Positions 22,874 through 22,898 of a stretch of DNA of 64,000 nt are shown piece after piece. The stretch is from Escherichia coli. GTDB taxonomy: Bacteria; Pseudomonadota; Gammaproteobacteria; Enterobacterales; Enterobacteriaceae. The notes below the pieces were generated by a model, which worked only from the letters and a program-made list of their open reading frames with translations, had not been told where the DNA came from and did not search any database. The position numbers and the translations under genes are program-made. The stretch lies in the NCBI RefSeq assembly GCF_003334335.1, contig NZ_QOWQ01000010.1. One strand, given 5' to 3'. The number at the start of each line of letters is the position of its first letter. The first letter of the stretch is position 1.

Positions 22874-22898
22874 ATTCTGCAGACACTGTCTGCAGAAT
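22874..22898. repeat. CAGAC-N3-GTCTG palindrome unit (perfect 11-bp arms) between the convergent nanQ and yhcG 3' ends
   Basis: attctgcagac-act-gtctgcagaat. Confidence 0.8.

Follow-up and report, generated by a model that had tools for sequence, protein, structure and literature searches.

A palindrome between nanQ and yhcG of Escherichia coli belongs to a family tied to YhcG/DUF1016 nuclease genes

DUF1016/YhcG (PDC-S02) is a very widespread candidate defence nuclease that is often found in type I restriction-modification loci. Here we analyse a 64,000-nucleotide stretch of Escherichia coli DNA (assembly GCF_003334335.1, contig NZ_QOWQ01000010.1; the window), in which a perfect 25-bp palindrome, P1, separates the convergent genes nanQ (yhcH) and yhcG. 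We find that P1 is one of a family of palindromes present, at a fixed position, in nearly all YhcG/DUF1016 genes, that the family covaries and is symmetric in the manner of a DNA site, and that its copies are breakpoints of rearrangements at the E. coli locus. We therefore read P1 as an extragenic copy of the YhcG/DUF1016 signature palindrome, a double-stranded DNA element with the YhcG nuclease as its most likely partner, and give this reading a probability of about 0.45. Binding or cleavage of the palindrome by YhcG, and any regulatory role, are putative and are suggested by co-inheritance, symmetry and copies in promoters. A palindrome fixed at one position of an open reading frame (ORF) across phyla is an unusual coding constraint, and it offers a handle on YhcG recognition, gene control and gene movement.

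P1, in full ATTCTGCAGACACTGTCTGCAGAAT, has 11-nt arms around a 3-nt centre, which is the same as 12-nt arms around a single central C. It lies 19 nt from the stop codon of nanQ and 15 nt from that of yhcG (22914-22916, minus strand), and is the sole structure in the 59-nt gap between the two convergent stop codons. A preliminary description, made from the letters of the window alone, had reported the perfect 11-nt-arm palindrome, placed it in one family with units inside yhcG at one base from the second of them, and held that without a U-tract it is not a canonical intrinsic terminator. All of this stands. The left arm of P1 is identical to that of the second internal unit and the right arm is one base off, and arm comparison and pattern scan both group P1 with the internal units. 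Neither flank (TCGAAACC on the plus strand, CTTTAAAA on the minus strand) has a T-run, and a terminator scan of 22300-24400 found no intrinsic terminator at 22874-22898. The same description had proposed either a protein-binding site, an idea compatible with our results, or a 3'-end stabilising hairpin for both convergent transcripts, which we do not favour and to which the family data lend no support.

Exact matches to the pattern ATTnnnCAGACnnnGTCTGnnnAAT / ATTNNNCAGACNNNGTCTGNNNAAT number five in the window, where 0.04 would be expected, and none of the shuffled sequences had as many. One match follows nanQ (P1), three lie within yhcG with a period of 39 nt (U1-U3) and one follows gltD (P2). 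The variable triplets are CTG in P1, TGG in U1, CTG/CCG in U2 and CGC in both U3 and P2, each with its complement in the opposite arm.

The family layout is 25 nt (11+3+11), with outer ATT/AAT, complementary variable arms and a centre of the form C-R-S-Y-G. P1 follows it throughout (ATT CTG CAGAC ACT GTCTG CAG AAT, with 11 of 11 arm positions paired) and is physically linked to its gene, just past the stop codon, as are the copies at two loci in other genomes (L023 and L090). A scan with a 16-base pattern of one genome per species (100,044 species) found at least 120 loci, from phyla across Bacteria and from Methanoperedens, Methanoregula, Methanomicrobiales and Woesearchaeota; all further counts from this pattern-selected sample are among the matches listed. 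There were 140 exact matches, and the free triplets were fully complementary in 87 and complementary at two of three positions in 34, where full complementarity is expected by chance in 1/64. YhcG-homologous ORFs contain 115 of the 161 relaxed palindromes. Those in ORFs all fall at positions 80-180 of the hidden Markov model (HMM), 103 of 117 of them at 120-160, and the reading frame has ATT as a codon in 125 of 130 palindromes.

Because this first sample was selected by the pattern, we also took a pattern-blind one, in which viral contigs were searched with two nuclease-domain peptides only, giving 73 unique genes. For each gene the best 11+3+11 palindrome was taken from the corresponding 350-nt stretch, with equal-sized stretches of the same genes as controls. 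At least 10 of 11 arm positions were paired in 51 of the 73 genes and 9 of 11 in 12, compared with 1 of 146 control stretches reaching at least 10 of 11. Several of these genes have cores other than CAGAC (ATTGCGTCCGCAGTGCGGACGCAAT, ATTGTCGTATCACTGATACGACAAT, ATTTGCTACACACTGTGTAGCAAAT, AAATCCGAGACAGTGTCTCGGATTT and ATTGGTCAACAAGCTGTTGACCAAT), which encode the peptides IASAVRTQ, IVVSLIRQ, ICYTLCSK, KSETVSRI and IGQQAVDQ; a further homologue has IRQTVSSE. Palindromy is thus kept while the encoded peptide varies widely. There is usually one palindrome per ORF and sometimes two to four, and extra copies can occur at the promoter, just past the stop codon or alone. Rfam 15 has no family at P1, with only sub-threshold microRNA-hairpin matches over 23628-23743 (best 23.6 bits against a gathering score of 80). 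In a full-text search, for which literature coverage is incomplete, we found no paper linking yhcG, DUF1016 or PDC-S02 with a palindrome, and for that reason we rate this element class, putative in function, as not previously described.

Covariation and symmetry bear on whether DNA, RNA or peptide is under selection. An alignment of 62 distinct 37-nt segments (A2) was tested for a 12-pair helix: 91.8% of cells are paired, both sides have changed in 11 of the 12 pairs, and the covariation score is 0.749, against 0.176 for shuffled alignments (0 of 500 reach it) and about 0.1 when partners are slid by 1-3 columns. The segments are the best palindrome per region, which inflates these figures somewhat, but the effect is real, given that control stretches reach at least 10 of 11 in 1 of 146 cases. 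Of the 64 cells over the 11 arm pairs that are not Watson-Crick, about 9 are G·U, the share expected of random mismatches; on the sense strand of the pattern-selected set there are 13 G·U, 19 A·C and 27 other mismatches. The centre is strand-symmetric, with 60 G-centred (AGT, AGC, GGT, GGC) and 59 C-centred (ACT, ACC, GCT, GCC) copies. G or C occupies the central position in 119 of 130, between a purine at position 12 and a pyrimidine at position 14 that are not correlated as a pair.

Strict Watson-Crick covariation, a strand-symmetric centre, a freely changing peptide and a low-confidence protein loop together point to an element that behaves as two-fold symmetric double-stranded DNA, either a duplex site or a cruciform, and not as an mRNA hairpin or a selected peptide. 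A sense-strand RNA hairpin was rejected at the family level on the absent G·U preference and the absent strand bias of the loop, and for the same reasons the family does not fall among structured RNAs, although compensatory changes are abundant. A peptide repeat as the cause was likewise rejected, given that homologue peptides differ while palindromy persists and that the stretch is a low-confidence coil. The conserved I-x-Q-T-x-S motif of DUF1016_N thus appears to be dictated by DNA symmetry and not by protein function, which calls for caution in annotation.

On the yhcG strand, U1-U3 are in frame and encode a 13-residue repeat (EIRQTMSGELTPL / GIPQTPSAEFPSA / KIWQTLSAKSFPL). In an AlphaFold2 model of YhcG, built with 60 homologues and with a mean predicted local distance difference test score (pLDDT) of 78.5, residues 97-140 are coil and pLDDT is below 50 for 104-127; the palindrome-encoded residues are 101-135. 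The units therefore encode a loop of the N-terminal domain that is poorly modelled and probably disordered. In PADLOC, YhcG hits the candidate defence gene PDC-S02 (E 3e-131), for which many fragment models end at residues 101-115. Its nuclease domain resembles NucS/EndoMS, Can2/Card1 and Bax1, and no solved structure matching YhcG by sequence was found. The window protein has R in the nearly invariant LPWS (LPRS; codon 141, 23619-23621) and Q in YWEIG (YQEIG; codon 44, 23910-23912), and both residues are W in the O157 allele. The window allele is natural, with at least 99% identity in about 1270 genomes.

Copies outside the ORF fall into several classes. At several Clostridia-type loci a copy lies between the TATAAT box and the ribosome-binding site (RBS) of the DUF1016 gene, about 325 bp ahead of the internal copy and often identical to it in sequence (L045, L066, L162 and L201, the last with a non-CAGAC core); a promoter copy is present in 2 of the 73 pattern-blind genes. 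Related palindromes follow the stop codon at L066, L082, L023 and L090, and at L090 the DUF1016 gene sits between 48-bp direct repeats centred on identical palindromes and its internal copy has decayed. Among the matches listed, 26 of 125 sites, some of them chance matches, have no DUF1016 sequence within 1.3 kb, and the triplets of the remaining solitary copies are about as often perfect as those of in-gene ones. Solitary copies lie 8-40 nt after stop codons, and their neighbours include hsdR, PDC-S62 and a pAgo-associated-like gene, but also metH and a glycosyltransferase gene. N-terminal gene fragments end at a palindrome at 8 sites, compared with 1 C-terminal fragment, again among the matches listed. 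At L114 a 255-residue ORF without a match in Pfam, NCBIfam or PADLOC lies between two palindromes (3739-3763 and 4685-4709), directly downstream of a type I hsdR; the same genome has another solitary copy on a separate contig (L115).

Some further extragenic copies were seen along the way. At the contig end of a Deltaproteobacteria metagenome-assembled genome (MAG; L016, 13830-14093), a tandem repeat of about 146 bp has one palindrome (ATTTAACAGACACCGTCTGTTAAAT) per unit, and a DUF1016 gene is not nearby. In a Legionellales MAG (L032, 4089-4136), two different palindromes overlap by 2 nt (…GGAGAATTTGCC…), 8 nt after the stop codon of a 175-residue ORF. Family-like palindromes with other cores (GAGAC-ACT-GTCTC, TCGAC-ACC-GTCGA and TCTAC-ACT-GTCGG) also occur outside genes, at about 12440-12460 of L053 and past the DUF1016 stop codon at L082 and L066. 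Because such cores exist, the exact-pattern scan undercounts extragenic copies.

In E. coli, the palindrome occupies 1-4 places per genome (median 2; 5387 genomes), all at the yhcG/gltD locus, which rules out a dispersed REP-like family in this species. The locus has at least four arrangements. Arrangement A, that of the window and K-12-type strains, runs nanQ, P1, yhcG with three units, yhcF, yhcE, yhcD, yhcA, gltF, P2 and gltD. Arrangement B (O157, L123; also L205 and L206) runs nanQ, P1, yhcG, 183 bp ending in an ordinary hairpin, and gltD, without P2, and its yhcG alleles have one, two or three units. In arrangement C (BL21/C41, E1, L207), 22856-23635 is replaced by 470 bp, so that P1 and the 3' two-thirds of yhcG are gone and the breakpoint is the first base of U1. 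In arrangement D (SaT040), nanQ and gltD are convergent around a single palindrome, ATTCGCCAGACACTGTCTGGCGAAT, in place of P1...P2, and the 7.1-kb yhcG-gltF segment is absent. Blast homology on the nanQ side of SaT040 extends to 22863, beyond which similarity can be followed by eye, across a small indel, as far as the palindrome; on the gltD side homology resumes exactly at 30013. Rough genome counts are about 1290 for A, about 560 for D and 3707 of 5426 for A and B together.

Other joints fall at the palindrome as well. E. albertii has lost the part of yhcG that encodes the nuclease domain. The two ends meet in a chimeric palindrome, AATTGGCAGACACTGTCTGCAGAAT, whose left arm is of the unit type and whose right arm is of the P1 type and directly adjoins the nanQ flank; U2 is the deletion breakpoint and P1 a recombination partner. 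Blast coverage of the E. coli unit region breaks at 23636, about 23657 and about 23705. In EC476, P1 reads ATTCTCCAGACAGTGTCTGGAGAAT, which differs at positions 6, 13 and 20 only, keeps symmetry at all three and has the flanks of the window. Copies of the palindrome thus form the junctions at which the 7.1-kb segment is present or absent, at which yhcG has been truncated twice independently and at which the number of units varies, and this explains a spot of known variability in E. coli between the nan operon and gltBD. P1 and P2 as remnants of decayed DUF1016 genes were considered and rejected: a six-frame HMM search of the flanks found only yhcG by P1 and nothing by P2 (E 0.5).

The 470-bp insert of arrangement C encodes a 101-residue ORF annotated 'transposase' (WP_000639208.1; L002 4151-4456, minus strand; L124 4530-4835) and carries a hairpin with a 10-bp stem (GGCACAGAGC...GCTCTGTGCC). 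Neither NCBIfam nor PADLOC has a family that matches this ORF, which leaves no basis for assigning a recombinase. Strains without the fimbrial segment have a G+C-rich hairpin (CAGCGCCG...CGGCGCTG) after gltD instead of P2 (L123 9459-9512, O157; the same in L002, L124 and L043). This hairpin junction is shared by E. albertii, which suggests that it is the older arrangement.

The coordinates of the palindromes and of the genes around them are collected in Table 1. K-12 derivatives have an IS5 inside yhcE (window region 24943-25490 compared with L208 1732-3476), and the window, which is without it, thus derives from a K-12-like strain that does not have the insertion. A small RNA divergent from yhcG, G0-10703, with a 128-bp overlap with the yhcG 5' untranslated region, has been reported (PMC7967276) and corresponds to about 24042-24170 of the window. 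Conservation among arrangements A, B and C likewise covers the 129 bp upstream of yhcG. The 13 nt ACGCGTTAACGCT, with the palindrome GCGTTAACGC inside them, are repeated exactly at 22448-22460 in nanQ and at 23933-23945 in yhcG, possibly by chance.

Table 1 Palindromes and genes at the nanQ-gltD locus (positions in the window).
Feature	Position	Strand	Description
P1	22874-22898	none	ATTCTGCAGAC-ACT-GTCTGCAGAAT; nanQ stop on one side, yhcG stop on the other
U1, yhcG internal unit 1	23636-23660	none	ATTTGGCAGAC-AGC-GTCTGCCAAAT; palindromy reaches 15-nt arms
U2, yhcG internal unit 2	23675-23699	none	ATTCTGCAGAC-GGT-GTCTGCGGAAT; single arm mismatch
U3, yhcG internal unit 3	23714-23738	none	ATTCGCCAGAC-ATT-GTCTGGCGAAT; counterpart of the only unit of the O157 allele
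P2	30013-30037	none	ATTCGCCAGAC-ACA-GTCTGGCGAAT; 15 nt after the gltD stop; arms identical to those of U3
nanQ (yhcH)	22390-22854	+	Ends the nan operon; convergent with yhcG
yhcG	22914-24041	-	DUF1016_N (residues 19-184) and YhcG_C PD-(D/E)XK nuclease domain (residues 208-360)
gltD	30053-31471	-	Stop codon 15 nt from P2
Variable segment	22899-30012	none	yhcG, yhcF, yhcE, yhcD (usher), yhcA (chaperone) and gltF; P1 and P2 on either side

In the reading we favour, the element would act as a duplex two-fold site or a cruciform, not as RNA or peptide, and a dimeric PD-(D/E)XK nuclease made from the same gene would bind it and possibly nick or cut it. The YhcG product is the most likely partner because the nuclease gene is the only component always inherited with the palindrome, and by analogy with other PD-(D/E)XK enzymes it probably acts as a dimer. 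Binding or cutting would then lead to self-regulation and to a recombinogenic site. The promoter copies suggest self-regulation in some lineages, and the breakpoints suggest a recombinogenic site, whether by cutting or simply as a hairpin-forming repeat. At the E. coli locus the visible outcome would be copies that form the joints of deletions, truncations and unit-number changes, with P1 and P2 delimiting the yhcG-gltF segment.

Several observations weigh against this reading. Units with different triplets (TGG, CTG, CGC) coexist in the window yhcG, each of them self-complementary, and such diversity is unexplained by a single sequence-reading dimer; it fits structure recognition or arm correction by template switching better. 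Autoregulation at the promoter is not general, since a promoter copy accompanies only 2 of 73 genes, and the pattern scan of the window found no copy upstream of yhcG. Ordinary slippage between 25-bp repeats could also produce the rearrangements, in which case no dedicated enzyme would be involved. Finally, the window YhcG allele (LPRS) may be functionally impaired, yet its palindromes are intact. A stronger form of the same idea, that these genes are nuclease-plus-site modules in which YhcG reads the in-frame palindrome as duplex or cruciform and copies serve as portable recombination sites for gain, loss and shuffling of the gene, its parts and neighbouring cassettes (at this locus a 7-kb fimbrial segment), we consider improbable. 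If true, it would define a new class of nuclease-palindrome partnership with a reach like that of REP-RAYT or attC-IntI, one that helps to shape defence islands in Bacteria and Archaea.

Some of the same evidence can be read differently. P1 and P2 might be functionless copies of internal units left behind by recombination and kept perfect by template-switch correction, with the breakpoints produced by slippage. Quasi-palindrome correction is an established mutational mechanism in E. coli, the arms of P1 match U2 and those of P2 match U3, the 17 nt that follow P1 bear a weak resemblance to the spacer beside U2, the E. albertii chimera is the expected leftover of simple repeat recombination, and the 1-4 copies of an E. 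coli genome are confined to this locus. What such a passive origin leaves unexplained is the fixed position in genes of different phyla whose proteins are about 30% identical, the equal perfection of in-gene, flanking and genuine solitary copies, and the precise placement in promoters between the -10 box and the RBS. We consider it somewhat unlikely as a full account, and it may be true of P1 even if the internal copy is functional. A function in RNA is a weaker candidate still. Here P1 would form a stem-loop at the 3' ends of the nan and yhcG mRNAs and act in exonuclease protection or as a weak bidirectional terminator. P1 with its flanks is predicted to fold at -22.7 kcal/mol (z -5.5) on the nanQ strand and at -16.6 kcal/mol (z -2.6) on the yhcG strand, no other structure occupies the 59-nt convergent gap, P2 is similarly placed 15 nt past the gltD stop, and solitary copies elsewhere are often 8-40 nt past one. 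However, the U-tract is absent and the terminator scan empty, G·U is family-wide no better tolerated than other mismatches, the loop has no strand preference, the element also occurs in promoters and within ORFs, O157-type strains have a different, ordinary hairpin after gltD, and Rfam gives no match. A literature search found no Term-seq paper mentioning yhcH. An RNA role of this kind, which we judge unlikely, could coexist with one at the DNA level.

Site-specific movement is a further option, in which the palindrome is a cassette boundary or att-like site where an enzyme inserts or excises yhcG, alone or with neighbours, as happens at attC. The contrast between palindrome-segment-palindrome and a single palindrome at the empty site fits such a system, and the L090 gene between 48-bp direct repeats centred on identical palindromes, the L114 gene between two palindromes downstream of hsdR and the solitary copies adjoining defence genes fit it as well. 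No recombinase is linked to the element, however, and a palindrome of odd length with a 1-3-nt centre is unlike the sites of tyrosine or serine recombinases; moreover, O157-type yhcG has no palindrome on the gltD side and most family members have no flanking copies. We regard this option as very doubtful. Hardly any credence is left for an invertible switch, in which recombination between P1 and an internal unit would flip the nuclease-domain segment and turn yhcG on or off. A palindrome is its own inverted repeat, and DUF1016 genes are enriched beside targets of programmed inversion (PMC9881135), but that enrichment concerns neighbouring hsdS-type genes and not DUF1016 itself, and a query for the P1xU1 inversion junction was covered to at least 80% in 0 of 5426 complete E. 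coli genomes, so that for E. coli assemblies the switch is largely refuted.

Among known systems, REP/BIME elements with their RAYT gene (the REPtron) are similar in that short palindromes lie just past stop codons, often between convergent genes, and are tied to one nuclease-type gene, which they can flank. REPs, however, number hundreds per E. coli genome and are unrelated in sequence, whereas the YhcG palindrome has 1-4 copies at one locus and lacks the genome-wide dispersal of a REP/BIME family; to our knowledge the REP consensus bears no resemblance to ATTnnnCAGAC. RAYT is also an HUH-Y1 transposase, whereas YhcG is a PD-(D/E)XK nuclease with its main palindrome within its own ORF. Integron attC sites share the conserved ends, the variable self-complementary interior, the position directly past a gene and the role as borders of presence/absence segments. 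They are 57-141 bp long, imperfect, built of R''/L''/L'/R' boxes, strand-specific with extrahelical bases and IntI-dependent, with a linked intI/attI, whereas the YhcG palindrome is 25 bp, perfect and strand-symmetric, with no integrase among the annotated nan, yhc and glt neighbours; it is not an attC site. Rickettsia palindromic elements (RPEs) are likewise palindromic DNA translated within a permissive region of a protein, but they are mobile repeats of 100-150 bp in many unrelated genes of one genus, in contrast to a palindrome fixed at one position of one gene family in Bacteria and Archaea.

Intragenic operators such as lac O2, gal OI and the purB operator, and the C-boxes of restriction-modification controller proteins, are palindromic sites inside or before the regulated gene, and the same-sequence promoter and internal copies about 325 bp apart at L045, L066, L162 and L201 recall them. 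Those sites are protein-bound, whereas the YhcG site is putative and most family members have the internal copy only; operators also need no self-complementary variable triplets, whereas YhcG units differ within one gene and are each self-complementary. The interrupted palindromes of type II restriction enzymes are another parallel: the commonest core, CAGAC-NNN-GTCTG, contains GACNNNGTC, the Tth111I site, the odd-length centre has the S/W-type degenerate dyad base of many PD-(D/E)XK dimers, and YhcG is itself a PD-(D/E)XK nuclease resembling NucS. The YhcG palindrome differs in being 25 bp long, in a core that varies between homologues, in having no methyltransferase and in lying in the gene of its own putative enzyme. 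Intrinsic terminators and 3' stabilising hairpins also place a stable stem-loop a few nucleotides past stop codons, but the palindrome has no U-tract and the family evidence is of the DNA type. P1 belongs neither to the intrinsic terminators nor to the Rfam RNAs or invertible switches, and its nearest analogies, REP-RAYT, attC, RPEs, intragenic operators and restriction sites, each differ from it in a defining respect.

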